A DNA stretch of 64,000 nucleotides from Pseudomonadota bacterium (GTDB lineage Bacteria > Pseudomonadota > Alphaproteobacteria > Caulobacterales > Hyphomonadaceae), in contig JBCBBZ010000011.1 of the NCBI GenBank assembly GCA_038531165.1, forward strand, positions 1,028 to 65,027. Reading direction: 5' to 3'. The position numbers and the translations under genes were made by a program. Below are positions 16,553-37,112 of this stretch, in pieces. Each line of letters opens with the position of its first letter. The first letter of the stretch is position 1. Below the pieces are notes generated by a model. It saw only the letters and a program-made list of their open reading frames with translations. It was not told the origin of the DNA and did not search any database.

Positions 16553-16569
16553 TTAATGAATTACATTAA
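16553..16569. promoter_or_regulatory. Motif-A palindrome TTAATGAATTACATTAA
   Basis: Perfect ATTAATG/CATTAAT arms. 52 bp upstream of the EF-hand gene start. Confidence 0.6.
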
Positions 16570-16735
16570 TTTATTTCATTTGAAAACCCAGAGAGTTAGC
16601 GGTCACTGCATTAAAATACCGCAACCATATTCAGTTCCCGCCGCCCTTCAGCAGGACCCAATTTGCCCCACTCCAGCGCCGCGAAGCCTCTTCAGAGGGT
16701 TTAGGGTGCCGATCGATCTAAGTGTCAGCCCTCGA

Positions 16736-17182
16736 TCATCCGGCAACCATTCCCTTTGGACGAAGCCGCTCAAATATAAGTCCGCCGACGGCTCCGGCTG
16801 CCATCTGCATCAAGAGACCATAGGTTTCTTGCGCGCCCAGAATTGGGAACACCCCAAATCTCAAATACATTAAACTGAGCGCGGCCCCGATCGCAGCAGC
16901 GCCGGCGACCGGATAGGCAATGATGGCGAGGTTCGGAACAATTTGTTTGACCCCACGCGCCACTCCAAACGCAATCGCGAAGCCCAATAGAATAACCACA
17001 AGATAAGGCACCATATGTAGCACGGCATGGGTCATGCTAGAGACGTTATCTAAGAGTGAAATTTCGAGCCCCAGGCCCATTAATCCCATCAACACTACAA
17101 ATTGTGAGAACAGGGCCGCAAGCACATAAGAACCGATGCCACTCGCTAGCCAAGCGCCTAGTGTTCTCGGAAAACTCTTCAT
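16736..17182 (-). CDS. Small integral membrane protein, unknown function
   Basis: About four hydrophobic helices. Strong RBS GGGGGAGAGG directly upstream of the ATG at 17182; the track start at 17212 is less likely. Confidence 0.45.
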   Translation of the reverse strand: MKSFPRTLGAWLASGIGSYVLAALFSQFVVLMGLMGLGLEISLLDNVSSMTHAVLHMVPYLVVILLGFAIAFGVARGVKQIVPNLAIIAYPVAGAAAIGAALSLMYLRFGVFPILGAQETYGLLMQMAAGAVGGLIFERLRPKGMVAG

Positions 17183-17229
17183 AAACCTCTCCCCCTTGAC
17201 GACGATCTTCATGTGCTCGTAAGAAGCAA

Positions 17230-17246
17230 TTAATGCCCAACATTAC
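17230..17246. promoter_or_regulatory. Motif-A palindrome TTAATGCCCAACATTAC
   Basis: In the 82-bp divergent gap between the membrane protein (-) and the PQQ dehydrogenase (+). Confidence 0.55.
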
Positions 17247-17264
17247 AACGGGCAATCATGGAGT

Positions 17265-18422
17265 ATGTCAATGCGCTTCTTTTTGCTGGCCATCCTGACG
17301 CAGCTGGCTCTTAGTGGAGCCATCGGAGTCGAGGCCGAGGCACCCGGCTTCGGTTTGGCAGAACCCTTCCCAAGCGATGAATACGAGGTTGAGGTGATCG
17401 CTCAAGGGTTGGACACGCCCTGGGACATCACTTGGCTGCCAAATGGAGACACGCTGATCACCGAACGTGACGGCGCTTTACGATTGATGCGCGGCGGTGA
17501 ACTCTTGGCCACCCCAATTGATGGCTTACCCAGTGTTTATGCGAGCAGTCAGGCCGGGCTTTTCGAAATCGCGCCGCATCCACGGTTTGAAGATAATGGG
17601 TGGATCTATTTCTCATATGCGCATGGCACGAAAAGCAAAAATACGCTTCGGCTCGCACGCGCGCAATATGTGCCAACGGCGGCCGGTGCGCGCCTCGAAA
17701 ACCTGTCCGTTCTGTTTGAAGCGAATGCCTATCGAAATAGTCCGGCGCATTATGGGGGGCGGTTTGTCTTTTTAGCAGATGAAACCCTGCTGCTGACATC
17801 AGGTGAAGGATATGCCTTCCGTCATGAGGCCCAAAAACTCGACAGCCATTTCGGCAAAACGCTGCGACTGACCGATACGGGCAAACCGGTACCCGATAGC
17901 CCCTTTGTGGACACTGCAGGCGCGTTGCCCGAGATATGGTCTTATGGTCATCGCAACCATCAAGGAATTGCCGTTGCATCTGATGGGATTGTTTACTCAA
18001 ATGAGCACGGCGCGCGCGGCGGTGACGAGATCAATGTGATTGCCCCTGGCGTGAACTTTGGGTGGCCCCTTGTGACCTGGGGCGTGGATTATTCTGGGGC
18101 GCAAATTAGCCCCTACTCTGAAACCGACGGGACTGTTCAACCGATCCTTTATTGGACCCCGTCAATCGCCCCAAGCGCCCTGATGTATTATGATGGCACC
18201 GTCTTCCCGGAATGGCGCGGCTTGCTGTTCTCATCAGGACTCGCCACACGCGAAATTCGCGTCATTGACCCAGCCGCGCCAGACGCAAAACAGTTTTCGT
18301 TGCTGACCGAGCTTGATGTTCGCATCCGAGATGTTGCGATGGGGCCGGATGGCTACATCTACGCTCTAACGGAGGGGCCCGGCGGCGGCGAAGTGTTGAA
18401 ACTGAGGCCGGGCGCCGAGTGA
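17265..18422 (+). CDS. PQQ-dependent soluble sugar (aldose/sorbosone) dehydrogenase family
   Basis: Signal peptide. Motifs LDTPWDITWLPNGDTLITERDG, YGHRNHQG, GGDEINVI...GVNFGWP are typical of the YliI/sGDH beta-propeller family. Confidence 0.8.
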   Translation: MSMRFFLLAILTQLALSGAIGVEAEAPGFGLAEPFPSDEYEVEVIAQGLDTPWDITWLPNGDTLITERDGALRLMRGGELLATPIDGLPSVYASSQAGLFEIAPHPRFEDNGWIYFSYAHGTKSKNTLRLARAQYVPTAAGARLENLSVLFEANAYRNSPAHYGGRFVFLADETLLLTSGEGYAFRHEAQKLDSHFGKTLRLTDTGKPVPDSPFVDTAGALPEIWSYGHRNHQGIAVASDGIVYSNEHGARGGDEINVIAPGVNFGWPLVTWGVDYSGAQISPYSETDGTVQPILYWTPSIAPSALMYYDGTVFPEWRGLLFSSGLATREIRVIDPAAPDAKQFSLLTELDVRIRDVAMGPDGYIYALTEGPGGGEVLKLRPGAE

Positions 18423-18503
18423 TTACCGCCTGGGCGGATAGGGGCTCAATAGGAAAGCTTCAATGCAAGCTCTCACTGCACGGTCTTATCCTTGACCAAT
18501 GCA

Positions 18504-18520
18504 TTAATGTGTCACATTAT
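18504..18520. promoter_or_regulatory. Motif-A palindrome TTAATGTGTCACATTAT
   Basis: TAATGTG-T-CACATTA is a perfect 7-1-7. About 80 bp upstream of the NMO start. Confidence 0.6.
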
Positions 18521-18596
18521 TTTGAAGGTTTGAGAGCGTCTGTCGATGCGACCCAAACCAAGAGACGAAACATCAGATAGAGCAAGAGCGCGACAC

Positions 18597-19571
18597 ATGC
18601 GAACCAAACTCACCGAACTCCTCGGAATCAAGGCGCCGATCATTTGCGGAGGTATGATGCGTGTCGGGACCGCCGACTTGGCGGCGGCTGTCTCGAATGC
18701 AGGTGGTCTTGGTGTTATGACCGCTCTTACTCAAAAGACCGCGGACGGTCTCGAGACTGAAATCGCGCGTTGCCAATCGATGACGGACAAACCCTTTGGC
18801 GTAAACCTGACCGTCGGGGTCGTCTCGACAGCGATTGACTATGATGAATATGTCGATGTCATCATCAAAAGCGGCGTCAAAATTGTCGAGACTGCAGGGC
18901 GCAGCCCAGCGCCCTTTATGGAGCGTTTCAAAGCTGCTGGCATAAAAGTGATCCATAAATGCGTCGCGGTTCGCCATGCTCTGTCGGCTGAGAAACTGGG
19001 CGTCGATGTCGTCAGCATAGACGGGTTTGAATGCGCAGGACATCCAGGCGACAAGGACATTGGTGGCCTTGTACTGTTTCCTGCTGCAGCACGTGTGCTT
19101 GATATCCCGGTCGTCGCGTCTGGGGGAATTGCCGACGGCAAGGGCTTGGCCGCCGCTTTGGCGCTGGGATGCGATGGCGTGAACATGGGCACACGCTTTC
19201 TGGCCACCCAGGAAGCGCCTATCCACGATGGCATCAAGGACAAGATCGTCGCGATGGATGAAAACCAGACGCAAGTCATCTTTCGCACATTCAACAATAC
19301 AGTGCGCGTCTTCAGAAACTCGGTTTCGGAGAAAGTCGCAGCAGTGGAAGCGGCGGGCGGCACGTATAACGACATTCGCGAGCTTGTGTCTGGCGCCAAT
19401 CAGGAAATCGCCTGGCAAACCGGAGATATTGAAGCCGGGATGGTCAGTGCCGGACTATCCGGGGCGTTGGTCGAACAGGTCTTGACCTGTGAGGAACTGA
19501 TCGACTCGATTGTTGCCGAAGCAAAATCAATTATCACCGATCGCCTGACCGGAATGTTTGCGGAGGCTTAG
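18597..19571 (+). CDS. Nitronate monooxygenase (NMO/2-nitropropane dioxygenase, FabK-like TIM barrel)
   Basis: MRTKLTELLGIKAPIICGGM...GGLGVM...ASGGIADGKGLAAALALGCDGVNMGTRF. Start taken at the internal ATG 18597. Confidence 0.8.
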   Translation: MRTKLTELLGIKAPIICGGMMRVGTADLAAAVSNAGGLGVMTALTQKTADGLETEIARCQSMTDKPFGVNLTVGVVSTAIDYDEYVDVIIKSGVKIVETAGRSPAPFMERFKAAGIKVIHKCVAVRHALSAEKLGVDVVSIDGFECAGHPGDKDIGGLVLFPAAARVLDIPVVASGGIADGKGLAAALALGCDGVNMGTRFLATQEAPIHDGIKDKIVAMDENQTQVIFRTFNNTVRVFRNSVSEKVAAVEAAGGTYNDIRELVSGANQEIAWQTGDIEAGMVSAGLSGALVEQVLTCEELIDSIVAEAKSIITDRLTGMFAEA

Positions 19572-19606
19572 ACCTGTAACTCATCCAGTCGTGCGTGTTG
19601 GTGTCT

Positions 19607-20800
19607 TTAGAGGCCGAGCACGGTTTTCGCTATGATATTTCTTTGCACTTCGCTGGTTCCGCCGGCGACAGTTGCTGCTCTTTGATCGAAGTAGCGCGGC
19701 GTCGCTAGCAGCCAATGCTCCGGACCAATCATCTCTTCATTATTCCCAGGCCGCAGAGCTTCACGCTGACGGACCAAAGCGTAGGGCCCTGCAGCTTCAA
19801 CAAAAAGCGCGTCTATTTCCTGCAACAGTTCGCGCGTCATCACCCGGGTGAAAGAAGACAAAACGCCTGGCGACTCGCCTTGCCCCAAAGCGTGGCTAAT
19901 GCGCTGCTCGGTGGCATCGGCAGCCATCATTGCGATTTCATTCGCGGCAAAGCGCTCGCGAAAACCGGGATCATCGAACTGATTGACGACGCCTTTCGAC
20001 GTGTCGTCATTTATCGCACCAGAAATAAGTCCAAGATTGCGGCGCAGCGTTGGCGTGATACTTGAGCCACCGCGTTCAAACTCGAGAAGATATTTCGCCA
20101 CGCGCCAACCGGCATTTTCGTCACCGACGCGATTGGATTGAGGGACGCGAACCTCGTCCAAGTAAACGTGATTTTGTTCGTGAACGCCATTCAGATTCAA
20201 AATTGGTTCGACACTGATTCCAGGACTGGTCATGTCGATCAGCAGGAACGTAATACCCTGTTGGGGCCGCCCCTCTGTGGACGTGCGCACCAAACAAAAC
20301 ATGTGAGTCGCATCCTGCGCATTCGACGTCCAAATCTTCGCGCCAGTGACGATATAGTCTTCGCCATCTTTGATCGCTACAGTTCTAAGAGACGCCAAAT
20401 CCGATCCAGACCCTGGCTCAGAAAAGCCCTGGCACCACACATGCTCTGCTGAGAGAATACGAGGAAGGTAGAAGTCTTTCTGTGCTTTTGATCCATATCC
20501 GATCAAGCACGGTCCGCACATGTTTAGGCTCTGCTGATGCTCACCGGGCGCGTTGGCCAGAAGCGATTCTTCGCGGAAGATCTCCTTCTGTTTAGGATCC
20601 CACCCCGTGCCTCCGTATTCTTCAGGCCAAGCCGGCGCGCCCCAACCATGGGCATGACGGACTCTTTGCCATTCCAGTGCTTGTTCCATATGAGGGAACG
20701 CATATGTCTGCAGCCGTCCTGCTGCACGCATGGCGTCGGTCAAATGCGCGTTCAGGAAAGCTTTAACCTCTGCCCGAAACTCACAATAATTTATTTCCAT
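19607..20800 (-). CDS. Acyl-CoA dehydrogenase
   Basis: ACAD pattern including the C-terminal GGTSEVQRNIIAKTVLGL. Start at MEINYCEF (ATG 20800), 25 bp after the ligase stop. Confidence 0.8.
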   Translation of the reverse strand: MEINYCEFRAEVKAFLNAHLTDAMRAAGRLQTYAFPHMEQALEWQRVRHAHGWGAPAWPEEYGGTGWDPKQKEIFREESLLANAPGEHQQSLNMCGPCLIGYGSKAQKDFYLPRILSAEHVWCQGFSEPGSGSDLASLRTVAIKDGEDYIVTGAKIWTSNAQDATHMFCLVRTSTEGRPQQGITFLLIDMTSPGISVEPILNLNGVHEQNHVYLDEVRVPQSNRVGDENAGWRVAKYLLEFERGGSSITPTLRRNLGLISGAINDDTSKGVVNQFDDPGFRERFAANEIAMMAADATEQRISHALGQGESPGVLSSFTRVMTRELLQEIDALFVEAAGPYALVRQREALRPGNNEEMIGPEHWLLATPRYFDQRAATVAGGTSEVQRNIIAKTVLGL

Positions 20801-20825
20801 CGTCAGCTTCCTTCGACATGGTCTT

Positions 20826-22394
20826 CTATGAGATGGACCGTTCCTGATCCTGCCAATACGGCGCTCTGAGGTCACGCTTCAACACTTTCATTGCCCCAGA
20901 AAGCGGAAGCGGCTCGTCTCGAAACGCGATCGACTTTGGCACTTTGTACCCCGCAACTGAGGCGCGCGCATGATCCATCAGGTCTTCATCCGAAACGCTC
21001 GCGCCATCAATGGGCACGACTATCGCGTGAACCGCTTCCCCCCAGACATCGTCCGGAATGCCGATGACCGCGACCTGGCGCACTGCGGGATGGCTCGCGA
21101 TCGCATTTTCGACTTCGGTGGAATATACATTCTCGCCGCCCGTCACGATCATATCTTTGACGCGGTCGACGAGGAACAAGTATCCGTTTTCGTCCAGATA
21201 TCCGGCGTCACCGGTATGGTACCAGCCGTCGCGGAAAACCGCTTCGGTGGCCTCTCGCTTGTTCCAATACTCGGTCATAAAATTCCCGCCCCGCGCGCAG
21301 ACCTCGCCGATATTACCGGTCGCAACTTCTTGCCCGTCTTTATCGCGAATGGAGAGCTCAACGCCGATGACGGGTCGCCCAACCGAGCGTAAATAGGCCC
21401 CGCCCTCACGATGGTCTTCGGGTGAAAGACTGGTAAGGCTCGCCGAGCTCTCGGTCATTCCGTACCCTTGAAACAGCTCAAGCTCTGGAGACGCTGCCAG
21501 CAGTTTGCTGAGCAAGGCTCCAGGCATCGGAGAGGCGCCATATGTCATTTGCTCGAGAGACTTCAATCGCTGGGGTGAGAAGTCAGGATGCGCCATCATC
21601 ATCCCGATCATCGTTGGAACCATTGTGGTCGATGTCACCTGATTGCGTTCAATTTCATTCATAACCAACTGAGGTTCGAAGCCAGGAATGATAACGGTTG
21701 TTCCGCCAACGGCATATGTCGAAAGCAGCCCCCCGGTTGAAGCAACGTGAAACATTGGCGTTTGGATGAGGCTCACAGTCGAGTCATTCATTTTTGGGCG
21801 CGCCAGACGTCCATGATATTGATTGAGCATTTTCGCGCGCTGATTGAGAACCACGCCTTTGGGAAGTCCGGTTGTGCCGCCCGTATACATCAAGACGACG
21901 GGGTCTTCTTCTTCAGGTTCGCGCGGCAGGACCGGAGAAGCCGCTTCAATCATGTCCTCATAATGAAAATCCGCGGGATCACCGCCTTCTCCAATTAAAA
22001 TAGATTTGCGAATGGGGAAGCTGTTACTCTCGCTTAGAGCCAAGGCCAAAAGTGGCGCGAAATGCTTGTCGACGAAAACAATTTCAGCGCCGGAATCCTG
22101 AATGATATAATTCAGTTCTTTCGGGCTCAGTCTCAAATTGAGGGGATTGATGATCCCACCGCCGAGAAATGCTGCATGAAAAAGCTCGAGGTATTCATGT
22201 GAGTTTCGCGCGAGGACTGCGAAACGATCGCCTTTGGACACCCCGCACTGATGCTCGAGCGCATGGATCAAGCGATAGACGCGATCCGCGTGTTGTTCGA
22301 ATGTTGCCTCATAAGCCCCATCAATGACGGCGCGTTTCGTTTTGTACCGCTGTAGTGCGGGAATAAAATGGCGGTGATAAATGAGCTCTTTCAT
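20826..22394 (-). CDS. Acyl-CoA synthetase / AMP-dependent ligase
   Basis: AMP-binding signature YTGGTTGLPKGV; GWYHTGDAGYLDENGYLFLVDRVKDMI. Confidence 0.85.
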   Translation of the reverse strand: MKELIYHRHFIPALQRYKTKRAVIDGAYEATFEQHADRVYRLIHALEHQCGVSKGDRFAVLARNSHEYLELFHAAFLGGGIINPLNLRLSPKELNYIIQDSGAEIVFVDKHFAPLLALALSESNSFPIRKSILIGEGGDPADFHYEDMIEAASPVLPREPEEEDPVVLMYTGGTTGLPKGVVLNQRAKMLNQYHGRLARPKMNDSTVSLIQTPMFHVASTGGLLSTYAVGGTTVIIPGFEPQLVMNEIERNQVTSTTMVPTMIGMMMAHPDFSPQRLKSLEQMTYGASPMPGALLSKLLAASPELELFQGYGMTESSASLTSLSPEDHREGGAYLRSVGRPVIGVELSIRDKDGQEVATGNIGEVCARGGNFMTEYWNKREATEAVFRDGWYHTGDAGYLDENGYLFLVDRVKDMIVTGGENVYSTEVENAIASHPAVRQVAVIGIPDDVWGEAVHAIVVPIDGASVSDEDLMDHARASVAGYKVPKSIAFRDEPLPLSGAMKVLKRDLRAPYWQDQERSIS

Positions 22395-22494: not shown

Positions 22495-22511
22495 TTAATG
22501 TATTACATTAA
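22495..22511. promoter_or_regulatory. Motif-A palindrome TTAATGTATTACATTAA
   Basis: Perfect 8-1-8 palindrome in the divergent ligase/SDR gap. Confidence 0.6.
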
Positions 22512-22665: not shown

Positions 22666-23391
22666 ATGTCTGGATGCACAATTGTACTTGGAGCAGGCGC
22701 CTCTCAGGGGGTCGGCGGAGCGCTATCACGGCGGTTTGCCCGCGAAGGGCAGCACGTGATAATTGGCGGCCGCACGACCGAGCGCATTGAGGCGCTCGCG
22801 CAAGAGGTGAGCGATGCGGGCGGGTCAGCCGAGGGCATTTCCGTAGACGTCACAGCCGAAGCCGACCTTGATGCCTTATTTGAACATGCTGCGCAGAAAG
22901 GCCCTATCAACGCGGTCTTATACAATGTCGGAAATAATGCGATTATTCCATTTGAAAAACTGGAACCGAAAACCGTCGAGAGGTTTTGGCGGGTCGGCTG
23001 TTTCGGTGCCTTTCTTACCTCGAAGCTCGCCGTGCCGATTATGAAGGCGCAAGGCCATGGAAGCCTGTTTTTCACGGGGGCTTCTGGATCGATGCGCGGC
23101 AAGCCAAACTTCGCCCATTTTGCATCCATGAAAGCAGGACTTCGCATGCTCGCTCAGTCACTCGCTCGAGAATTTGGACCCGATGGCATTCATGTCGCCC
23201 ATTTTGTCATTGATGGCGTAATCGATGGTGAAATGGTTCGCAGCCGTTTCGGCGAATATGTCGAAAAGCTTGGCGAAGATGGCTGCCTGTCACCCGATGC
23301 CATAGCGGAGGCTTATTGGCACGTGCATTCGCAGCCAAAATCAGCCTGGACTCATGAAATGGATCTTCGCCCATTCAAGGAGCGCTGGTAG
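22666..23391 (+). CDS. SDR-family oxidoreductase
   Basis: Rossmann motif LGAGASQGVGGAL. GASGSMRG...FASMKAGLRMLAQSLAREFGPDGIHVAHFVIDG. The usual catalytic Tyr position reads Phe/His (HFASMK). Confidence 0.75.
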   Translation: MSGCTIVLGAGASQGVGGALSRRFAREGQHVIIGGRTTERIEALAQEVSDAGGSAEGISVDVTAEADLDALFEHAAQKGPINAVLYNVGNNAIIPFEKLEPKTVERFWRVGCFGAFLTSKLAVPIMKAQGHGSLFFTGASGSMRGKPNFAHFASMKAGLRMLAQSLAREFGPDGIHVAHFVIDGVIDGEMVRSRFGEYVEKLGEDGCLSPDAIAEAYWHVHSQPKSAWTHEMDLRPFKERW

Positions 23392-23441
23392 CAAAGCAGA
23401 GTCCGGTCGGCTTGGCCGAAAAAGTGATCATTCGATAACTT

Positions 23442-24554
23442 TTAGTTTTCTACATTCGGAGCTGCACCTTCCGGCGCATCCATCAGCGAACCCTCAACGC
23501 GCTCCGAGACCGCCGCCGTAGGTTCAGCCTCAAGCTCTTCGACCACACGCATGATTGCAGCTGCAATCTCGACGGGCACTTCTTCCTGCAAGAAATGCCC
23601 GGCCTGCGTTTCTGTAACGCGCGCATTTGGGAAGAAGTTCTTCATTGCAGGCAATGCTCTGGCGAAGATCGGATCGCTCATGCCCCAAACGATCTCGGCA
23701 GGCACATCAAGCGACGTGACATATGCCTGAATATTGCGAAGCTCTGCCGAACTTGGATGATCGGGACCGTCCGGCACCATTCGCATCAGCGCCAGTGGGG
23801 CCTTCTTGTTTCCGCTTTCGATGACGGGGCGACCGTAAAGGTCAGCGACCTCTTTTGGAAAAGAGGCTGGATCACCCTGGGTCTCATGTAGACGATCAAA
23901 AATGGAGACGAGGTTCTCCATCAATAATTCGCCGACGACCGGAGTTTTGGCGAGATCATGCGCCCGCGACAGGCTCATTTTTTCGGTAGGTGCATTGAAA
24001 CCCGTGTTCAGCACAACTGCGCCGCTTAGAAGCTCGGGCGATTGCATAAGAGCCCCTACACCAACTGCGCCGCCCCAATCCTGCCCGACATATACGAGGT
24101 CCTCAAGCTGCAACTGCCGCAAGGCTGAATTCATCCAACGCATATGATTTTCGAGCGTGTGCTCGCTCGCAGAAATTTTGGTCGAAAAGCCGAGCCCAAC
24201 CATTGTCGGCATGATCACCCGCACTCGATCTATCGGCAGTTCAGCAACCACTTTGCGATACAGAAGCCCAGAGGTCGGATTTCCGTGCTGCGCATAAACT
24301 GGATACCCCTCACCGACTTCGAGAACATGAATTTTGATCCCTGGTTCAACCTCAACGAAGTAGCTTTTATAATCCTCTGAGAGGACCTCAGCCGCGTAGT
24401 CCGGCAATGCAAAGGCCTCAAACGTCCCGGCATCCAGGGTGACCGTGCCCTCGCCTTTCGGGACGATCTGCTTGCCATCGCGCGTTATAGTGAAAACCAG
24501 GATCACACCCGCGAGGATGATAACGCCCAAAACAATCAGTGACATTTTCAACAT
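23442..24554 (-). CDS. Alpha/beta hydrolase, haloalkane-dehalogenase (HLD-I)-like, N-terminally membrane anchored
   Basis: N-terminal TM MLKMSLIVLGVIILAGVILVF. HGNPTSGLLYRK; GQDWGG (Asp nucleophile + Trp, not GxSxG); C-terminal AGHFLQEEVP. Confidence 0.65.
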   Translation of the reverse strand: MLKMSLIVLGVIILAGVILVFTITRDGKQIVPKGEGTVTLDAGTFEAFALPDYAAEVLSEDYKSYFVEVEPGIKIHVLEVGEGYPVYAQHGNPTSGLLYRKVVAELPIDRVRVIMPTMVGLGFSTKISASEHTLENHMRWMNSALRQLQLEDLVYVGQDWGGAVGVGALMQSPELLSGAVVLNTGFNAPTEKMSLSRAHDLAKTPVVGELLMENLVSIFDRLHETQGDPASFPKEVADLYGRPVIESGNKKAPLALMRMVPDGPDHPSSAELRNIQAYVTSLDVPAEIVWGMSDPIFARALPAMKNFFPNARVTETQAGHFLQEEVPVEIAAAIMRVVEELEAEPTAAVSERVEGSLMDAPEGAAPNVEN

Positions 24555-24569
24555 GGTCTCTTCGCCTAC

Positions 24570-25714: not shown

Positions 25715-25731
25715 TTAATGTAATGCATTAC
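25715..25731. promoter_or_regulatory. Motif-A palindrome TTAATGTAATGCATTAC
   Basis: 45 bp upstream of the HLD-like gene start at 25670. Confidence 0.55.
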
Positions 25732-26412: not shown

Positions 26413-26479
26413 GATGTTCGAGAATCCTTTTCAGCAAATCCGATGTTGAAATTTTGCGAAGTTGCGTTGCCACCTGTGT

Positions 26480-27172
26480 TCAGCTCAGGTCGACCTTGTT
26501 TGGCAAGAAATTGCTGAACATGGCGGTGCAGTTTTGAAGATTTTCAGCAAAGCCTGGGCTCGCCTTCATTATCTCGGTATGTTTGACCAAGCCGGGCCAT
26601 TTGCCAGCGTCGGGCAGGCCCGCCACTAAATCAAGCTGAGTCATTTGAGCGGCAACGGCGATATCGGCAACGGTTGCGCTGTCGCCGACAAAATAGTCAT
26701 TCCCGTCCAGAGACGCTTCGAGATAGTCAAAGTATTTCGGAAGCTTTTCGTTCCAGGTTTTCTTTGCGGTGTCGACATCGGAGGCCTCGCCTTTAAAAAT
26801 CGGGAAGACAATCGGCCGGAAAAGTTCCAGGCCGAGCGTCATTGCGAACCCGGTATCCATGTATTCTTCATACCAAGCGGCGCGGCCCGCATCAAAAGGA
26901 TTTGATCCATACAGGCCGACATCGAAGCGGCGTTCCAGATACATGCAAATGGCGGACGAATCTGGGATTGTGCCAGGAATGCCTTCTGTTGCTATGGATT
27001 TATCGCGGAGAACAGGAATACGCCGCGATGGGCTGATCTCAACAAACCAGTCGGGCATGTCCATTATGTTGATATTCACCAATTCGTATTCCGCGCCGGC
27101 CTGGTGAAGGGCCGCTTCGGCCTTGCGCACGAAGGGGGACATGGGTGTTCCGTAAAGGACGAAGTCAGTCAT
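26480..27172 (-). CDS. Glutathione S-transferase
   Basis: Start taken at MTDFVLYGTPMSPFVRK (ATG 27172, RBS AGGAAAG). RIPVLRD...SSAICMYLE GST N-domain pattern. Confidence 0.7.
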   Translation of the reverse strand: MTDFVLYGTPMSPFVRKAEAALHQAGAEYELVNINIMDMPDWFVEISPSRRIPVLRDKSIATEGIPGTIPDSSAICMYLERRFDVGLYGSNPFDAGRAAWYEEYMDTGFAMTLGLELFRPIVFPIFKGEASDVDTAKKTWNEKLPKYFDYLEASLDGNDYFVGDSATVADIAVAAQMTQLDLVAGLPDAGKWPGLVKHTEIMKASPGFAENLQNCTAMFSNFLPNKVDLS

Positions 27173-27330
27173 GAGAGAACGCTTTCCTGGTTGATCTCTT
27201 CGTTCATATGTTGCGCACCTGAACGATGTCGGAGCGTCATTATCAGCATCTGGCGCGGAGACATGCAAACGGGCAGACACCGATGAGCGGCCGAACTCGG
27301 AGGCCTCTTATCGGTCAATACTCCAAGGTT

Positions 27331-30018
27331 TTAGAACGCCTTACGGATGGTCACGCCAAATGTGCGAGGCTGGTTCGGAAAGCCATTATAGTTTCCATCG
27401 AGCGGTGCCGGCGACGTGGCGATAAGATACTCGTCTTCGAATAGATTGCGCGCCCAAACGGATACGCCAATACCATTCTCTGTCATAAGACCGGCGGACG
27501 CATTGAGGATATTTTGTTCTCGAGAATAGCCAGCTGCTTCAATGAGCGCCTGGTCGGCCGGGTTATCACTGAACGCCGAGTCGCCGACATATTGCCAGTC
27601 ACTGCGAACAAAACCACCCATGTTTCGAACTCGGAAGTTGAAGTTCGCTCCGACCGTGAATTGGGTGTCGGCAATGCCTTGCGGGGTTTGGCCAGACAGA
27701 TCGATGGGATTGCCATTTTCATCAACCGCTCCGCCGGCGAAGCTGTCATATTCCGCGTCTAGGAACGTTCCGGCGAATGTCAGGGTGAGCGGCGGGATCG
27801 GCCGCCAAGTGGCGTCCAATTCGAGCCCCAAAGTCGACTGCTCCTCAGCATTCCTTAGCGCAAAACCGCCAGTGCCACTAAAGACGCTTGATTGGAACCC
27901 TTCGATGGATTGATCAAAAACGGCCACGTTAAACGCGACCGTGTCGAATTGAGCTTTTAGACCTAGCTCAAACACGGTCGCCATTTCAGGACCAGCCAGC
28001 CGCGTTCCAACAGGCAGATTGGTCGTGTATAGCCCTGCATCTGTGACCGGAGATGATGGTGTCACGAACAGGGCTTGGCCCGTAATCGGATCGACAATCG
28101 GGTTCCCTTGAATGAGGTCTGCCGAGGACGGTGCGCTTTGACGCTGTAGATTCCATGACGAGGCCTTAAAGCCGGTCGCATAAGTGCCGTAGACGTTGAT
28201 ATTATCGTTCACATCATAAGCCAGCCTCAGCGTGTAGGTCGTATCGCTATCGCTTGACTGTCCATCTTCGACTGCGTTCGGGAAGCTGAGGAATGGCGGG
28301 AAGATCTGTATTCCACGCAGAACGTCGAAAGGGTTGTTTGGACTTTGGGCAACTGCCAAAGCTTGCTGCTGGAACTGCGCATAAGCTTGAGGATTGCCTT
28401 GCACGAACGGCCCAATTGAGGCTGGGTTTTGAACATCTATCCCCTGCATGGCCAATAAGTTTGCGAGCGTAGCTGCATACCCGATTTGCTCTAGATTGAC
28501 GGTCGCGAGGGCATCTGTCGTGAGGACATTCATGCTCACGTCTTTTTCATCTTCGGTATAGTTTAGACCGACAGTCGCCGTCAGGCGGTCTGTCAGGTGG
28601 AAATCGACCTTCCCGAAAACCGAAAAGGCCTCGTTTTCCTGAGAAATCTCTTCAAAGCTTCCCTGCCCGGCGCCGAGGAACGCGCCGGGAGGGACGCCAA
28701 CAAAACTCTCAAGACCAGGAATGAGCGCTGGATTTCCAACCAGCCCATTCACGTAGGCTCGAAAGTCTTGCCCAAAGGCAACCGATGAGTCGACATCGAT
28801 CGACTCGTCAAAATAGAACGCGCCGATCATCCAGTCGAAACGATTGTCCGATGGATTGGAGGTCACCCTGAATTCCTGGGTGAAAGTGTCAATTTCCGTG
28901 TCTGAGCCAAAGAAACCGAACAGATCGAGATCTGTGGTGTCCGGATCGCTATTCTCGACGGCATTCGAATTTCGAAACGCTACAATATTGGTAATGGTTG
29001 CAAATCCGAGGTCATAATTGCTGTTAAGCGAGAGGCCCGAATTTTCGATTTCATTGGTCGGCGGGAAAGTGACAAACGCGTTATAGGAATACGGATCTTC
29101 AGCAACGATCGAGCCACCCAGAGCCTGGATGCTGGTATTCGGCACAATTGGCTCAGCCGCGGTTGGATCAGCACTCACAACGTTTGACAAAAGGCAGCAA
29201 TCTTCGTCGATCTCCTCATAATCGGCTATAAGACGGACATTGAGCCTCTCATTTGGGGCGAATAAAAGCTCGCCGCGAACGCCCCAGCGATCCCGCTCAT
29301 TATAGAGATCACCGGTCCCAAGGTCTTCGGCATAACCATCGCGTTGGTTCACACTGCCTGACAAGCTGTAAGCCAGCGTATCTGTAATCGGGCCAGTAAT
29401 GTCGCCCTTGGCGCGGAACGCATTGAAGTTGCCAAGACTGGCTTCAAAGCTCCCTGATCTTTCGAACTCTGGGCCTCGGGTGACAACCGAAACGACGCCG
29501 GCTGATGCATTCTTGCCGAACAGCGTGGATTGCGGCCCTCGAAGGACCTCCACACGCTCAAGGTTTGGCAAGTCCGGGATGTAGGCGGCGGCGCGAGAGC
29601 GATATACGCCGTCAATGAAAATGCCGACCGATGGCTCAATGCCAATTGCGTTAGAACCGTTCCCGAACCCGCGAATGAAGAAGCTTGTATTCGCCGAGGT
29701 CTGCCCCTGGCGAACCGTCAAGGATGGAACGAGGCTTTGTAAGTCATTGAGGTCTTGGATTTCCGCTCGCTCAATGTCTTCGGCCTGAACGACGGATATC
29801 GCCACCGGAGTGTCCTGCAGCGTGCCCTCTCGCTTTGTCCCGGTTACCGTTATGGTCCCGAGCCTCGCAGTCTCATCGGCCCCTTCTTGTTGCGCCGTAT
29901 CCGGCTCTTGACTGGCCGCGGTCGGTACGACCCCAGCCATCAAAGCCGCCAGCGCAACGCTTACGGAAAGGATCGCTTTTGGTTGGCGGAAATAGGGCGC
30001 AGTTTGGCAATGTCTCAT
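27331..30018 (-). CDS. TonB-dependent outer-membrane receptor
   Basis: Signal peptide, plug region (TVTGTKREGTLQDTPVAISVV...VEVLRGPQSTLFGKNASAGVV), 895 aa, C-terminal ...TFGVTIRKAF. Confidence 0.9.
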   Translation of the reverse strand: MRHCQTAPYFRQPKAILSVSVALAALMAGVVPTAASQEPDTAQQEGADETARLGTITVTGTKREGTLQDTPVAISVVQAEDIERAEIQDLNDLQSLVPSLTVRQGQTSANTSFFIRGFGNGSNAIGIEPSVGIFIDGVYRSRAAAYIPDLPNLERVEVLRGPQSTLFGKNASAGVVSVVTRGPEFERSGSFEASLGNFNAFRAKGDITGPITDTLAYSLSGSVNQRDGYAEDLGTGDLYNERDRWGVRGELLFAPNERLNVRLIADYEEIDEDCCLLSNVVSADPTAAEPIVPNTSIQALGGSIVAEDPYSYNAFVTFPPTNEIENSGLSLNSNYDLGFATITNIVAFRNSNAVENSDPDTTDLDLFGFFGSDTEIDTFTQEFRVTSNPSDNRFDWMIGAFYFDESIDVDSSVAFGQDFRAYVNGLVGNPALIPGLESFVGVPPGAFLGAGQGSFEEISQENEAFSVFGKVDFHLTDRLTATVGLNYTEDEKDVSMNVLTTDALATVNLEQIGYAATLANLLAMQGIDVQNPASIGPFVQGNPQAYAQFQQQALAVAQSPNNPFDVLRGIQIFPPFLSFPNAVEDGQSSDSDTTYTLRLAYDVNDNINVYGTYATGFKASSWNLQRQSAPSSADLIQGNPIVDPITGQALFVTPSSPVTDAGLYTTNLPVGTRLAGPEMATVFELGLKAQFDTVAFNVAVFDQSIEGFQSSVFSGTGGFALRNAEEQSTLGLELDATWRPIPPLTLTFAGTFLDAEYDSFAGGAVDENGNPIDLSGQTPQGIADTQFTVGANFNFRVRNMGGFVRSDWQYVGDSAFSDNPADQALIEAAGYSREQNILNASAGLMTENGIGVSVWARNLFEDEYLIATSPAPLDGNYNGFPNQPRTFGVTIRKAF

Positions 30019-30066
30019 AAGATCCTCCCATATGCCATTCGCATTTATGATGCTTATAATTAATTT

Positions 30067-30083
30067 TTAATGCTATGCATTAT
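30067..30083. promoter_or_regulatory. Motif-A palindrome TTAATGCTATGCATTAT
   Basis: About 50 bp upstream of the TonB receptor start at 30018. Confidence 0.55.
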
Positions 30084-30195: not shown

Positions 30196-31884
30196 TCAGT
30201 TGGCCCAAGTCACATATTCATCACTGACATCAAAGGGGTCTGTATTGGTTTTATCGATCCGAACCGGCCACTCCATCGCGTGAGGAAAGAGTGGCGATCT
30301 CGCGTTTCGCCAGTGCTGATCAATAAGGCTTCTCAGCTCCGCAAGTTTCTCCGGTTGCGTTGCCGACAGCTCAACTTGCTCGGTTGGATCTTGGGCCAGA
30401 TTGAACAGCCATTGCTTGTTTTGTCGCTCATCAATTTGTAGTTTCCAATCTCCGGCACGAACTGCTTTGTAAAAACCGCTCGACCAATAGATGGCATCAT
30501 CTGGGCGTTGCACAGCGGCTGCTTCGCCCACCGCGAGCGGCAATATGTTTTGACCATCAATGACAACGTCACTCGGTAAATCTACGCCTGCAACAGCGGC
30601 TAGAGTTGGCATTAGGTCAATATGACTGACCGGCTCTGATATCACCGCTCCCGATGGGATACGGTCTGGCCATTTGACAAAAAATGGAACCCGAATTCCG
30701 CCTTCAAAAAAAGAGCTCTTCCAACCCCGATAGGGTTGGTTCAAATCGGATAGTCCAATATAGCCTGCGCCGCCATTGTCCGACGAGAATATGACAATTG
30801 TGTTTTCGGCGATGCCCTCTTGCTCGAGCTTGTCGAGCACCCGACCAACCGACCGGTCGACTGCACGCACCATGCCAGCATAGACCCGCAAACGGTGTGG
30901 CTCGATCTCGCCAACAGCGTCATAATCCTCTCGGGTCGTTTGCAATGGCGTATGCGGGCCCCAGTGCGCTAGGTATATGAAAAAAGGTCTGTTTTTGTTC
31001 TTCTCTATGACGTTGAGCGCTTCGTCGGTGAAGTAATCCGTAAGGTATCCTTTCGGCTCAAACCACTCCTCCGTCAGCGCTCCGCCTACTTGATCAAAGT
31101 CGACGGCGTGCTGCATACGCGCCCAAAGAAATTTGTCCAGTGGGTCGAAATCGAGCTTGGCATTAACAGCTTCGGGGTCATCTTCTTTGATGAACAAACC
31201 GCTCGTCATCATCAAGCTTTCGTCAAAACCTTGCGACACAGCTCGCGAGGGCTCCGATCGCCCCAAATGCCATTTTCCGATATGCACTGTGTGATAGTCG
31301 GCCGGCTGCAATACTTCAGCAACCGTGACCTCTTCGCCAGGCAAACCTTTCTCCAAAAAGGGTATATCCGCCTCTGCATGCGCTGGGTTGTGACGCAAAG
31401 CAGGCAAGCCAAATTCCACCTGGTCATTATTCGTCACACGAGCAATCACGCGCGCCATTGAAGCGGGGGCAGGTGTAAATTCTTGTCCTGTTCGCGTCGG
31501 ATACCGCCCTGTCATAAGCATCGCGCGGGAAGGGGCACAGGTTGCTGCACCGGCATAGGCATTGATAAAAGTCGCGCCGCTAGCGGCGAGACGATCAATA
31601 TTTGGCGTTGGAACTTTGCCGCCCGCCACACCGCCGCCGAAGGTCGAAATATCATTAATTCCCAAATCATCTGCGAGAATAAAAACGATGTTCGGTGGGC
31701 GGTCTGAACCGCTTCCAACCGGCGCAATCGGCCCCGCCTGCCACTCTATCGGGGTATTCGGCGCAACATCCGTTTTGCCAGTATTTGAGATCACGAATAT
31801 AAAGAGTGCCGTCCGATTGAACCAGACGGTCAAGGCTAGGATCAGCATGAACACGCTCATGCCGATGAGGGCTTTTTTCCACAT
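30196..31884 (-). CDS. Arylsulfatase-family sulfatase (Cys-type formylglycine)
   Basis: CAPSRAMLMTGRYPTR (C-x-P-x-R) signature; NIVFILADDLG. N-terminal hydrophobic anchor or signal. Confidence 0.85.
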   Translation of the reverse strand: MWKKALIGMSVFMLILALTVWFNRTALFIFVISNTGKTDVAPNTPIEWQAGPIAPVGSGSDRPPNIVFILADDLGINDISTFGGGVAGGKVPTPNIDRLAASGATFINAYAGAATCAPSRAMLMTGRYPTRTGQEFTPAPASMARVIARVTNNDQVEFGLPALRHNPAHAEADIPFLEKGLPGEEVTVAEVLQPADYHTVHIGKWHLGRSEPSRAVSQGFDESLMMTSGLFIKEDDPEAVNAKLDFDPLDKFLWARMQHAVDFDQVGGALTEEWFEPKGYLTDYFTDEALNVIEKNKNRPFFIYLAHWGPHTPLQTTREDYDAVGEIEPHRLRVYAGMVRAVDRSVGRVLDKLEQEGIAENTIVIFSSDNGGAGYIGLSDLNQPYRGWKSSFFEGGIRVPFFVKWPDRIPSGAVISEPVSHIDLMPTLAAVAGVDLPSDVVIDGQNILPLAVGEAAAVQRPDDAIYWSSGFYKAVRAGDWKLQIDERQNKQWLFNLAQDPTEQVELSATQPEKLAELRSLIDQHWRNARSPLFPHAMEWPVRIDKTNTDPFDVSDEYVTWAN

Positions 31885-31974
31885 TTTTAATTCAATCTAT
31901 TCGTTGACGAACAACGGGAGGAAACGCGTGTTTAAGTCTTTTTTGTATGTTTTAGGATAATAATGAGAGTCAAT

Positions 31975-31991
31975 TTAATGTCTAGCATTAT
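31975..31991. promoter_or_regulatory. Motif-A palindrome TTAATGTCTAGCATTAT
   Basis: About 90 bp upstream of the sulfatase start at 31884. Confidence 0.55.
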
Positions 31992-32013
31992 TTTGCCGCG
32001 TACCAACAGCGCG

Positions 32014-33483
32014 TCACGCATTTAATTTTTCCAGGTTCTGCTCGTGCGCGTCTTTGTCGATCCGGTAAGTCGAAATGACGGCGATCATGGTCAACCACAA
32101 GCTCAAAACAAGCGGCACGTAATAGGCGCCCATTTTCCAGATAGCAGCGTCGCTCACCTCTTCAACGCCAGCCCCTGTGGGAAAGTCCGCAAGCGCCAGA
32201 ACGATGGTTGCGGCCAGCACGCCAAAGCCTTGAACTGATTTTTTCACAAAGGTTTCTGCCGCAGTGAAAACCCCTTCTGACCTTCGCCCCGTTTTTAGCT
32301 CGCTCTCCTCGACGAGATCAGCGATCATAGACGCAAACAGGATTTGAAAACAGATGATCAAGCCGACATCTATCACGTTCGTGATCGTCACAAACCAAAA
32401 AACAAACGGCGTCCCATTGGGCGGTAGCAAATCTAGCAAACGCAATACAATCGGCAATGGCGCGCCGCCAAACGCAATCAGACCGACGATCATGGCGCCG
32501 CGCTTTTTCCCGATCTTGCGAGACACTAATGGTGCGAGAACAAGCCCGATCGCGGCCGCAACGAACGTTCCGAGGAACACCATACCCGTCTGAATATCGG
32601 TAAAGCCCCAAAAATAGGTGAAAAAGTAAAGCGAAAGGCCGGCTGCAACGCCGCTCGCCACAGCGCCGAGCAAAGCCGCGATAAAGAGTGCGATGAAGGA
32701 CCGGTTTGCGAGGGTTTCAAACACTTCACGAAATATGGTTGCGATCGTCATCGACCTTGGCGGCGGGGGCTTTTTAAGGTGCGGTATCCGAGAATGCGTC
32801 CCCACAGAAGACACCATGATTGACACAAAGATCATCGCCGAGCCGATCAAACCATAGAGCACATATGCGTCTTTGTTGAACCGACCGTCGCTAATCGTGT
32901 CGGTTACAAAAGTTGGAAACATAATGAAGAACATCAACACCGTGAGGGCATTGGCACCTGTCCAAGCGCAAAAGAATCTCAAGCTAAAAATGGAGGTGCG
33001 CTCATCATAGTCCTGCGTCAAATCCGGCACTAATGCGCTGCTCGGTGTACGGTAGAATGTGATCGCCGTCCGAACAATCACGGCCAGGCTCAAAACATAC
33101 CAAAACAACACGGTTTGACTGGCATTCTCTGGTGGTGCCCATAAGAAGAAGAAGCTCAGCGTAACGGGTATCGCCGACGCATACATGAAGGGGTGTCGCC
33201 GCCCCCAACGCGATCGAAGATTATCTGACCAGTAGCCAACGACTGGGTCGCTTACAGCGTCAAAAATCAGCGCGATGAGAATGGCCAAGCCGACCAAGCG
33301 CGCATCAAGACCAATCACTTGACTGTAAAAGATCAATAAAAAGAAATCAAAAGCCCCGGTCGTGACGCCGCCAGCGACGGCGCCTAGACCGAATGTAAGC
33401 TTTGTCCCCCGCCCCAAAGGGGGTGGCGTCATTCGGAGCGTGCGAGCGGGGTCCGATCCGAAACTGCGCTCTTCAGCATTCAT
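32014..33483 (-). CDS. MFS transporter, glycoside-pentoside-hexuronide (GPH) cation symporter-like
   Basis: Multi-TM. DPVVGYWSDNLRSRWGRRHPF matches the GPH loop motif. Start taken at MNAEERSF (ATG 33483). Confidence 0.7.
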   Translation of the reverse strand: MNAEERSFGSDPARTLRMTPPPLGRGTKLTFGLGAVAGGVTTGAFDFFLLIFYSQVIGLDARLVGLAILIALIFDAVSDPVVGYWSDNLRSRWGRRHPFMYASAIPVTLSFFFLWAPPENASQTVLFWYVLSLAVIVRTAITFYRTPSSALVPDLTQDYDERTSIFSLRFFCAWTGANALTVLMFFIMFPTFVTDTISDGRFNKDAYVLYGLIGSAMIFVSIMVSSVGTHSRIPHLKKPPPPRSMTIATIFREVFETLANRSFIALFIAALLGAVASGVAAGLSLYFFTYFWGFTDIQTGMVFLGTFVAAAIGLVLAPLVSRKIGKKRGAMIVGLIAFGGAPLPIVLRLLDLLPPNGTPFVFWFVTITNVIDVGLIICFQILFASMIADLVEESELKTGRRSEGVFTAAETFVKKSVQGFGVLAATIVLALADFPTGAGVEEVSDAAIWKMGAYYVPLVLSLWLTMIAVISTYRIDKDAHEQNLEKLNA

Positions 33484-33699
33484 TTGAGTTATGTCGTTAT
33501 GTGTTTGCACAAGATGAAATCCGATTGGTAACGGGTTGGGTTTCGCGGAAGGGGTTTTACCGGCGCACCCGATCGACTCTCGATGTTGCGCATTTGGTTT
33601 CGGTATGATGCCGTTCGCGTCCCTAATTGACGCCGGCATGCGCTGGAGTTGCGGACACCGCTTGTTTTTTTTATCGTTTTGTTAGACACTCCAGGGTAA

Positions 33700-33716
33700 T
33701 TAATTATACTGATTAA
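33700..33716. promoter_or_regulatory. Motif-A variant TTAATTATACTGATTAA
   Basis: Overlaps the next site. In the divergent MFS/TetR gap. Confidence 0.4.
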
Positions 33717-33729
33717 TATACTGCATTAG
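33713..33729. promoter_or_regulatory. Motif-A variant TTAATATACTGCATTAG
   Basis: 11 bp upstream of the TetR ATG. This placement is consistent with autoregulation. Confidence 0.5.
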
Positions 33730-33739
33730 GAAGATAACG

Positions 33740-34363
33740 ATGCGAAAGTCAACTCGCCAAGATACCAGGTCCGCCTTGATGCAGTCGGCGGAGCGCCTTT
33801 TTTCTGAGAAAGGCATTGGCACTGTATCGGTAAAAGAAATCACGTCGGCGGCGGGCGCGCGCAATCTGAGCGCCGTGCACTACCATTTTGGATCGATCGA
33901 AGCTCTGATAAAAGAGCTTTTCATCGAACGATATCAGCGCATTGAGCATGATCGTTTGGTACGCCTTGCGAAAGTAGATGCGTCTTCGTCGGATAATCGT
34001 TTATTCGACCTACTCTATGCCGCAATAGCCCCCTTCCTGGAGACATGCTTGGACGAGAAAGGACGACAATATGTTCATTTCGTTATTCAGCTCACGCATG
34101 ATCCACGATTTGATGTCGCTGAGATTGTTGCAGAGGCAGAGAGTGTGAGTGTCCTGACCCTCCGAGGCCTTCTTGTGGATTGTTTGAAACATTTGCCGGC
34201 AGAAATACTTGCGGCGCGGTTAAGACAAGGCTTTAAAATCAACATGCTTCAGGCGGCCGACTATGCCCGGCTTGTAGAGGATGGATCAGCTCCCCCTATT
34301 GAAGATGCTATTCGCGAAGCTGCACATACTCTGGCCGGATACTTGAACGCTCCAGCAAGCTAG
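33740..34363 (+). CDS. TetR-family transcriptional regulator
   Basis: N-terminal HTH ALMQSAERLFSEKGIGTVSVKEITSAAGARNLSAVHYHFGSIEAL. Divergent from the MFS gene. Confidence 0.85.
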   Translation: MRKSTRQDTRSALMQSAERLFSEKGIGTVSVKEITSAAGARNLSAVHYHFGSIEALIKELFIERYQRIEHDRLVRLAKVDASSSDNRLFDLLYAAIAPFLETCLDEKGRQYVHFVIQLTHDPRFDVAEIVAEAESVSVLTLRGLLVDCLKHLPAEILAARLRQGFKINMLQAADYARLVEDGSAPPIEDAIREAAHTLAGYLNAPAS

Positions 34364-34417
34364 CTTCCATACTCGAGAGGGCTTGCTGGATCTCAGGAAA
34401 GCTGATACTCAGCAGAA

Positions 34418-34434
34418 TTAATGCAGTGCATTAT
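34418..34434. promoter_or_regulatory. Motif-A palindrome TTAATGCAGTGCATTAT
   Basis: TAATGCA-G-TGCATTA is a perfect 7-1-7. About 105 bp upstream of the BVMO ATG. Confidence 0.6.
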
Positions 34435-37103: not shown

Positions 37104-37112
37104 GAGGCTGAC

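Follow-up and report, generated by a model that had tools for sequence, protein, structure and literature searches.

Why should one short, AT-rich palindrome recur in gap after gap of a single bacterial gene cluster, and what reads it? The question is raised by a 64,000-nucleotide stretch of contig JBCBBZ010000011.1 (assembly GCA_038531165.1, a member of the Hyphomonadaceae), referred to here as the window, in which the sequence TAATG-N5-CATTA precedes genes for sulfatases, a type I Baeyer-Villiger monooxygenase (BVMO), a TonB-dependent receptor and hydrolases resembling haloalkane dehalogenases (HLDs). Within the same cluster lies a gene for a 207-aa regulator of the TetR family (33740-34363, plus strand), the proposed cognate repressor. 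We put the probability at about 0.8 that the palindromes are the operators of this protein and that it acts as a repressor released by a ligand. The particular switch has not been described previously; the kind of switch is ordinary. An initial annotation of this DNA had already read the repeats as one regulon under an autoregulated TetR protein, and every comparative-genomics test that we ran supports that reading.

The window holds eight exact copies of the core, at 16554, 17231, 18505, 22496, 25716, 30068, 31976 and 34419, which we number O1 to O7 and O9 in order of position. The initial annotation had found the same copies with coordinates one lower, having counted a flanking T into the motif. 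Dinucleotide-preserving shuffles of the window give an expectation of 0.02 exact cores, and eight copies were reached in 0 of 100 shuffles. All eight are confined to 16.5-34.5 kb, and the computed scan agrees with the earlier inspection by eye in finding no exact site in the remaining 46 kb. When Pfam-supported open reading frames are taken as the gene model, intergenic DNA makes up 10.6% of the window and contains every exact core (8/8, with 0/8 in coding DNA), and the two variant sites that had been reported alongside them also fall in an intergenic gap. Shuffling the intergenic segments only gives 0.007 expected exact cores. In an unbiased enumeration of all 5-mer dyads with gaps of 0-12, TAATG-N5-CATTA was the top intergenic dyad with 8 copies, and the runners-up were shifted readings of the same motif.

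Relaxing the search changes little. Tolerating one mismatch yields 12 matches in the window, against 1.2 expected, and the additional four lie in the tetR promoter (33714), within the MFS transporter gene (32922), within the opening codons of the gene for sulfatase 2 (38481) and at the end of an IS6 copy (41540); the last three of these are at chance level. A palindromic position weight matrix (PWM), built from the eight exact sites and run over the whole window, scores those sites at 22-29 bits. The next-best matches in the whole window are the two previously reported variants, at 33714 (13.3 bits) and 33701 (11.2 bits), and coding DNA contains no score above 11 bits.

The resulting logo is TAATGY-N3-RCATTA. 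Its arms are invariant in 61 exact sites, drawn from the window and from 15 diverged loci described below, and information outside the ten core bases is found only at positions 6 (Y) and 10 (R), with the flanks adding almost none. The 17-bp form first proposed, TTAATG-N5-CATTA(A/T), is slightly too strict and not universal, as the sites at 17231 and 25716 end in C. Measured to start codons supported by ribosome-binding sites, the distances are 11-105 bp, within the 11-110 bp first given, and one gene, encoding a short-chain dehydrogenase/reductase (SDR), falls outside that range at 155 bp from its site in a divergent gap.

Palindrome and regulator travel together. We scanned relatives of the TetR protein in one genome per species, 24 loci in total, cited below by locus number. 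Three are near-identical (96-99%; a Henriciella metagenome-assembled genome (MAG) and two Pseudomonadota MAGs), 15 are diverged (50-57%; Qipengyuania, Erythrobacter, Porphyrobacter, Sandarakinorhabdus, Sphingomonas, Stakelama, Polymorphobacter and one Paracoccaceae MAG; GC 56-66%), and six encode unrelated TetR proteins that match in the helix-turn-helix (HTH) only. Of the 18 orthologous loci (50-99% identity, GC 52-66%), 17 contain the exact core, usually in 4-6 copies and before the same genes; it occurs in 0/6 of the unrelated ones, whose 114 kb are free of it. Two further clades reached by exact-protein look-ups (TetR 79% and 62% identical) show the same site pattern.

The gene content of these loci is shared as well, and isolates with the cluster include Porphyrobacter sp. 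AAP60 (NZ_LJHV01000008), Sandarakinorhabdus sp. AAP62 (NZ_ANFY01000007) and Qipengyuania sp. ASV99. Mapping with the window proteins delimits a conserved core of sulfatase 2, sulfatase 1 divergent from the TonB receptor, a DUF4267/4345 protein, the hydrolase, the MFS transporter divergent from TetR, the BVMO, a DSBA-like protein and an EF-hand protein. Sites occupy the corresponding promoter gaps, namely those of the sulfatase/TonB receptor, hydrolase, MFS/tetR, BVMO and EF-hand orthologues. When 17 loci are pooled, the two 2-kb bins on either side of the tetR start contain 17 and 14 exact sites (per ~32 kb); the density declines in both directions and drops to zero beyond +/-8 kb. In L016, a variant site (TAAGGCATGGCATTA, 16624-16638) was observed in the divergent gap beside a paralogous TetR (28% identical) and a second hydrolase-sulfatase pair, which may represent a diverged sister regulator-operator pair.

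The orthologous loci also clarify the autoregulatory sites. In the window, tetR is flanked by sites on both sides (33701/33714 and 34419), as it is in orthologous loci. The two sites at its own promoter, which the initial annotation had described as overlapping variants, do lie in the divergent MFS/tetR gap and are clearly degenerate: 33701-33715 (TAATTATACTGATTA, 11.2 bits) carries two core mismatches and 33714-33728 (TAATATACTGCATTA, 13.3 bits) carries one. The latter ends 11 bp before the tetR ATG. At this same place, a perfect core stops 12 bp short of the ATG in nine diverged loci (L004, L005, L008, L009, L011-L015) and 11 bp short of it in L025, and L018 has a core with one mismatch. Several loci have no site directly before tetR. 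In four of them (L006, L007, L017 and L018), tetR is located downstream of the hydrolase gene in the same orientation, and the operator is found at the hydrolase promoter instead, which makes the shift a consistent exception.

The protein itself is an unambiguous member of its family without a close characterized relative. Residues 14-60 match PF00440 (34.2 bits, cut-off 24), and the C-terminal domain matches TetR_C_30 (27.5 bits, cut-off 26.3). The AlphaFold2 model (pLDDT 93.2) has 10 helices in the canonical two-domain TetR fold, and its top Foldseek matches in the PDB are all TetR-family proteins, the best being PA3006/PsrA (TM-score 0.75, 21% identity). PDB sequence matches are confined to the HTH, again with PsrA best (2fbq, E = 6.5e-9). 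The top NCBIfam match is the PsrA equivalog NF053516, at 48.8 bits against a cut-off of 300 and over the N-terminal half only; with a score so far below the cut-off, we rejected the protein as a PsrA orthologue. The names attached to 145 homologous clusters are all generic, and no characterized close homologue was found in the PDB, in NCBIfam or among these clusters. Literature searches for the motif, and for the combination of sulfatase, BVMO, TetR, TonB receptor and haloalkane dehalogenase, returned nothing on this regulon. Across 57 orthologues that are otherwise 50-60% identical, the HTH and recognition helix (residues 29-51, VSVKxITxAAGARNxSAVHYHFG) are nearly invariant, as one would expect of a protein that reads an invariant operator.

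In both the window and the annotated Porphyrobacter locus L012, the conserved cluster contains no regulator gene other than this tetR. Elsewhere in the window one further regulator was found, a second TetR protein (47973-48605); it was considered as the cognate regulator and rejected, its promoter gap having neither the motif nor an obvious inverted repeat.

The position of the sites relative to promoter elements is suggestive of repression. In 12 of the 16 loci with a site at the BVMO promoter, the operator is preceded by a TTGA(C/T)A box (11 TTGACA, one TTGATA) that ends 3 nt upstream of it, and in 8 of the Sphingomonadales loci TTGCCA has the same spacing from the operator at the tetR promoter. 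With conserved boxes at this spacing, the operator would fill the spacer and run into the -10 region. Similar arrangements can be found in the window. At O3, the promoter-like sequence TTGACC-17-CATTAT (18492-18520) puts the right half-site on the -10 hexamer; at O5, TTGCCA stands 4 nt before the site on the minus (coding) strand; at O6, TTGAAA-16-AAAAAT on the minus strand brackets the site; and O7 overlaps TAGACA-16-TATTAT. The degenerate sites at tetR overlap TAGACA-16-TATACT (33683-33710).

Several points weigh against reading the palindromes as operators of this repressor. Sigma-70-like matches between 16 and 35 kb number 15, against a shuffle mean of 14.8, which makes the overlap with promoters in the window no more than suggestive; the stronger evidence for repressor geometry comes from the conserved TTGACA and TTGCCA boxes of the orthologous loci. 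The window's own autoregulatory sites, at 13 and 11 bits, are its weakest, against at least 22 bits for the others. The control TetR loci are high in GC (60-74%), where an AT-rich motif is rarer anyway. The case is built entirely from comparative genomics, with scans that cover the window and the fetched loci, so sites elsewhere in the genomes, or in genomes that lack the TetR gene, are possible. Finally, a reverse test, in which metagenome contigs were scanned for the commonest operator 16-mer (TAATGTAATGCATTAA), matched at least 120 loci; among the matches listed, the median GC is 0.38, none has a TetR orthologue and nearly all have a single site. This test is dominated by chance matches in AT-rich DNA and is uninformative. 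One contig met in it, L075 (1476 bp, GC 0.34), is an AT-rich tandem repeat with 11 copies of TAATG-N5-CATTA in 1.5 kb and no regulon genes, and appears to be unrelated.

The weakness of the tetR-proximal sites and the scope of the scans would also be compatible with a different regulator, encoded elsewhere, that binds the palindrome while the neighboring TetR protein controls only its own promoter or something else; moreover, a 17-bp AT-rich dyad would suit several HTH families. We consider this unlikely. The motif follows the TetR orthologue across orders and across genomes of 52-66% GC, most orthologous loci have a perfect site at a constant distance upstream of tetR, the island looks mobile with this TetR as the only regulator aboard, and the second TetR gene of the window has no motif nearby.

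Even if the TetR protein is the one that binds, its role could be activation or dual regulation instead of simple repression. The spread of distances to start codons (11-155 bp) and the lack of convincing -35/-10 overlap at some window sites leave some room for this, and a few TetR-family activators are known. The great majority of characterized TetR-family proteins are repressors, however, and in many orthologous loci the operators sit inside the core promoter, 3 nt downstream of the conserved boxes. An activating role is therefore less probable still than a different regulator. That the repeats bind no protein at all, and are instead RNA hairpins or terminators, an alternative sigma promoter element, a miniature repeat or chance AT-rich palindromes, is very improbable: 25-nt windows do fold into small hairpins (-2 to -5.7 kcal/mol) and lone copies of one operator 16-mer do arise by chance in AT-rich metagenomic DNA, but the hairpins are weak and have no T-runs after them, the 61 sites keep their arms without compensatory change around a variable loop (base-specific rather than structural conservation, with no covariation), an Rfam search of the sites gave no match, the flanks are not conserved as those of a repeat element would be, the two-fold symmetry and the use of both orientations are unlike a sigma-factor promoter, and the chance expectation is 0.007-0.02.

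If the palindromes are indeed operators of a ligand-released TetR repressor, the following mechanism can be proposed. A TetR homodimer would read the half-sites TAATGY and RCATTA, whose centers, about 10-11 bp apart, would place them on the same helix face in two successive major grooves. With the operator in the spacer or -10 region at most promoters, the bound dimer would keep RNA polymerase off. A lipophilic effector, such as the sulfated substrate or a downstream intermediate, perhaps an acyl-CoA, would bind the C-terminal domain, free the repressor and switch the whole island on. The functions so regulated would be uptake by the TonB receptor and MFS_2 transporter, the sulfatases and hydrolases, glutathione S-transferases (GSTs) with a DSBA-like protein, the BVMO, a set of beta-oxidation type (CoA ligase, acyl-CoA dehydrogenase (ACAD), enoyl-CoA hydratase (ECH), SDR and NMO), the EF-hand protein and tetR itself. 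Physical binding, the sign of regulation, operon boundaries, effector and substrate are in each case what we infer from sequence.

Some promoters may bind two dimers. A second, weaker site at +13 bp, sharing CATTAATG with the first, accompanies 9 of 71 exact sites, where we estimate that ~0.6 would be expected by chance. Double sites with this offset were found in the window (33701-33728) and in L004 (4348/4361), L008 (4137/4150), L011 and L014 (9974/9987), L013 (4135/4148), L015 (2731/2744) and L025 (9962/9975). A pair offset by 20 bp occurs at the TonB-receptor promoter in the window (30048/30068), L003 and L025. Only these two offsets, 13 bp and 20 bp (the latter at two of the exact sites), are seen more than once, which suggests paired binding at those promoters.

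The controlled set would comprise nine promoter gaps and about 11 transcription units with 20-25 genes, counted on predicted operon boundaries. The gene labels of the initial annotation were confirmed at family level by Pfam, NCBIfam and PDB searches; 'PQQ dehydrogenase' and 'HLD-like' hold at that level and not beyond it. At the left end, O1 (16554-16568, TAATGAATTACATTA; exact core, 28.4 bits) lies 53 bp upstream of the start (16500, minus strand) of the gene for an EF-hand periplasmic protein (16087-16500), and its equivalent in L025 lies 54 bp upstream of the EF-hand orthologue. A weak second site with two mismatches follows O1 at the +13 bp offset (16567-16581). Downstream of the EF-hand gene and on the same strand are the genes of an OEP-MFP-RND efflux system (10164-15978), absent from the initial list of regulated genes. 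The gap between the EF-hand and OEP genes is 108-126 bp, no site precedes the OEP gene, and the same EF-hand to OEP-MFP order with an operator before the EF-hand gene recurs in L025-L027; the RND pump is probably a member of the regulon.

O2 (17231-17245, TAATGCCCAACATTA; exact core) is the weakest of the eight at 22.3 bits. It sits in a 52-bp divergent gap between a gene for a 158-aa membrane protein (16736-17212, minus strand; start 17212 or 17182) and one for a dehydrogenase of the GSDH/PQQ type, a family-level label (17265-18422, plus strand; start 17265 or 17271). O3 (18505-18519, TAATGTGTCACATTA; exact core) is a perfect 7+1+7 palindrome upstream of the gene for an NMO-family oxidoreductase (18546-19571, plus strand). 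An NMO orthologue with 81% identity is present in the L028/L029 cluster. The true start of this gene is likely 18597, given that the orthologues align from residue 18. The best site of all is O4 (22496-22510, TAATGTATTACATTA; exact core, perfect palindrome, 28.6 bits), in a divergent gap 101 bp from the start (22394) of the long-chain acyl-CoA ligase and ACAD genes (19607-22394, minus strand) and 155 bp from that (22666) of the SDR gene (22666-23391, plus strand), which would share it. ACAD and ligase genes follow the BVMO and hydrolase genes in L005.

O5 (25716-25730, TAATGTAATGCATTA; exact core) lies 45 bp upstream of the start (25670) of two tandem genes for dehalogenase-like alpha/beta hydrolases (23442-25670, minus strand), with counterparts at orthologous hydrolase promoters in L003, L004, L007, L011-L013, L015, L018, L025 and L028. 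The two hydrolase genes (23442-24554 and 24570-25670) are tandem duplicates with 74% nucleotide identity, and each product has an N-terminal membrane anchor. The motifs HGNP, DWG, DPI and GHFLQE can all be recognized in them and line up with haloalkane dehalogenase structures, a combination that we take to be the Asp-His-Asp plus Asn-Trp pentad. Against the NCBIfam HLD models they score 135, 108 and 102 bits, where the cut-offs are 265, 241 and 466. The pair is therefore best called HLD-like, and membership among the haloalkane dehalogenases proper is not established by these scores.

O6 (30068-30082, TAATGCTATGCATTA; exact core) lies 49 bp upstream of the start (30018) of the TonB-dependent receptor gene, with the weak auxiliary site (30048-30062, two mismatches) 20 bp away. 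Two GST genes, labeled by Pfam, follow the receptor gene across gaps of 50 and 67 bp (25801-30018, minus strand), and the same TonB receptor-GST-GST order is found in L003 and L025; the three genes probably form one unit under O6. O7 (31976-31990, TAATGTCTAGCATTA; exact core) lies 91 bp upstream of the start (31884) of sulfatase 1 (30196-31884, minus strand), a formylglycine-type S1 sulfatase with an N-terminal membrane anchor. This site is conserved in L001, L003 and L025 and at the sulfatase/TonB-receptor gaps of Sphingomonadales. The closest matches of sulfatase 1 are S1 sulfatases of the carrageenan type, and steryl-sulfatase ranks lower. Next comes the gene for an MFS_2 transporter of the GPH family (32014-33639, minus strand), divergent from tetR here and in L004, L008, L011-L013, L015 and L025, with the degenerate operator pair (33701-33728) between the two genes.

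The last site, O9 (34419-34433, TAATGCAGTGCATTA; exact core), lies between tetR and the BVMO gene, 56 bp from the stop codon of the former and 105 bp from the start (34539) of the latter, a position occupied by a site in 16 orthologous loci. The operon that follows (34539-40654, plus strand; labels from Pfam, PDB and NCBIfam) encodes the type I BVMO, a protein resembling DSBA and HCCA isomerases, a DUF4267 membrane protein, an ECH-family protein, sulfatase 2 and a 130-aa membrane protein, and its gene order is kept in L002, L003, L025 and L030. The BVMO and sulfatase 2 starts were confirmed by an independent gene caller. The BVMO (34539-36437) has as its best PDB match the fungal polycyclic-ketone monooxygenase PockeMO (5mq6, 4e-128), and it scores 659 bits against the pentalenolactone BVMO PtlE (cut-off 1100), ahead of the steroid and phenylacetone monooxygenases. 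This affinity hints at a bulky alicyclic substrate. The one-mismatch match in the first codons of sulfatase 2 (38481-38495, TAATGAGCCTCATAA; gene-caller start 38468) is kept only in the near-identical L002 and is absent in L025; it is probably due to chance, and it could be a weak internal operator.

How does this proposed regulon compare with known systems? PsrA, the fatty-acid-responsive repressor of beta-oxidation genes in Pseudomonas aeruginosa (PA3006), is likewise a TetR-family protein, and it resembles our protein in its proposed autoregulation and in catabolic targets of the acyl-CoA type. The two proteins are only 21% identical, however. The PsrA operator, G/CAAAC-N2-4-GTTTG/C, is unrelated to TAATG-N5-CATTA, and the PsrA regulon is without the sulfatases, BVMO, TonB receptor and dehalogenase-like genes found here. 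KstR and KstR2, the TetR-family repressors of steroid catabolism in Mycobacterium and Rhodococcus, are autoregulated, recognize a short palindrome in many promoter gaps and respond to a lipophilic or CoA-thioester effector. The logic of one TetR protein for many promoters of a catabolic cluster is the same, and KstR2 is among the weak PDB matches to our protein. Yet the KstR proteins belong to Actinobacteria, show no significant full-length similarity and have another motif and other gene content. The regulon of the window is also smaller than that of KstR, with about 10 sites on an apparently mobile island, and carries sulfatases, a TonB receptor and dehalogenase-like hydrolases.

The adjacency of a TetR gene and a type I BVMO gene, with presumed repression, recalls EthR-EthA and EthR2 (Rv0078) of M. 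tuberculosis. Structures of EthR2/Rv0078 are among the top Foldseek matches, at about 20% identity. EthR acts on a single divergent gene through a long operator that holds several dimers. In the window, by contrast, the BVMO gene follows tetR in the same orientation and has a separate operator, and eight further promoter gaps are involved. The TetR protein of the window is a member of neither the KstR nor the EthR-EthA system. A precedent for the double sites is QacR, a TetR-family protein that places two dimers on one extended operator, as the 13-bp-offset overlapping sites at the tetR and TonB-receptor promoters would do. Unlike in QacR, these double sites are a minority (9/71), and their second site is always the weaker.

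The regulon appears to lie on a mobile island. Two IS6-family copies (DDE_Tnp_IS240; 6060-6870 and 40758-41568), about 83% identical and in the same orientation, enclose the RND pump and the whole TetR regulon in an arrangement that looks like a composite transposon. A third, partial IS6 copy lies 3 kb further on (44543-44888). Near-identical clusters are present in the Henriciella MAG and in the two other Pseudomonadota MAGs. In L012 (Porphyrobacter sp. AAP60), the cluster ends at a phage-type integrase (15629-16978; Arm-DNA-bind_3, Phage_int_M, Phage_integrase), a second hint of mobility. A megablast of 16.0-40.9 kb against a plasmid collection gave no match. Beside the first IS6 copy, at 6978-9391, are genes for an N6/N4 DNA methylase, a DUF5681 protein and a protein with an Mrr-like restriction endonuclease domain, which are probably mobile-element cargo. 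The second TetR gene of the window (TetR_C_31) belongs to a separate cluster at 41950-49557, with a copper amine oxidase, a beta-lactamase-fold protein, an FAD oxidoreductase, a cupin and a PhyH dioxygenase.

A plausible pathway can be drawn for the island at the level of enzyme families, without naming a substrate. A sulfated compound would be taken up by the TonB receptor and the GPH-type transporter and desulfated by two anchored S1 sulfatases, with the EF-hand protein as a possible supplier of their calcium. Oxidation to a ketone would be followed by Baeyer-Villiger insertion, catalyzed by a BVMO of the type that accepts bulky substrates, then by hydrolysis or dehalogenation-type chemistry through the HLD-like pair and the GSTs, and finally by CoA activation and beta-oxidation, with export by the RND pump. 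Neither the BVMO nor sulfatase 1 passed a curated equivalog cut-off. The island combines two anchored sulfatases, two HLD-like hydrolases, two GSTs with a kappa-GST-like protein, a BVMO of the PockeMO/PtlE type and beta-oxidation genes, a set that fits a sulfated alicyclic, terpenoid, steroid-like or long-chain secondary alkyl substrate, possibly also a halogenated one. We raise, as a tentative idea that is more doubtful than probable, that the operator set delimits a horizontally mobile catabolic island for an unstudied natural sulfated lipophilic compound, with the TetR protein as its specific sensor. The island is common to marine and freshwater Alphaproteobacteria. If the idea is true, the regulon would give the dehalogenase-like enzymes a physiological context and provide a TetR-operator biosensor with which to find the inducer.

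A TetR repressor on a palindromic operator is a textbook mechanism, and it will not surprise the specialist; the value of the finding is practical. The regulon ties 20-25 vaguely annotated genes, conserved across Sphingomonadales and other Alphaproteobacteria, into one functional unit, and the TetR protein with its operator makes the question of the substrate testable by inducer screening. With a regulator of its own and about 10 matching operators on board, the island would keep its regulation through horizontal transfer.

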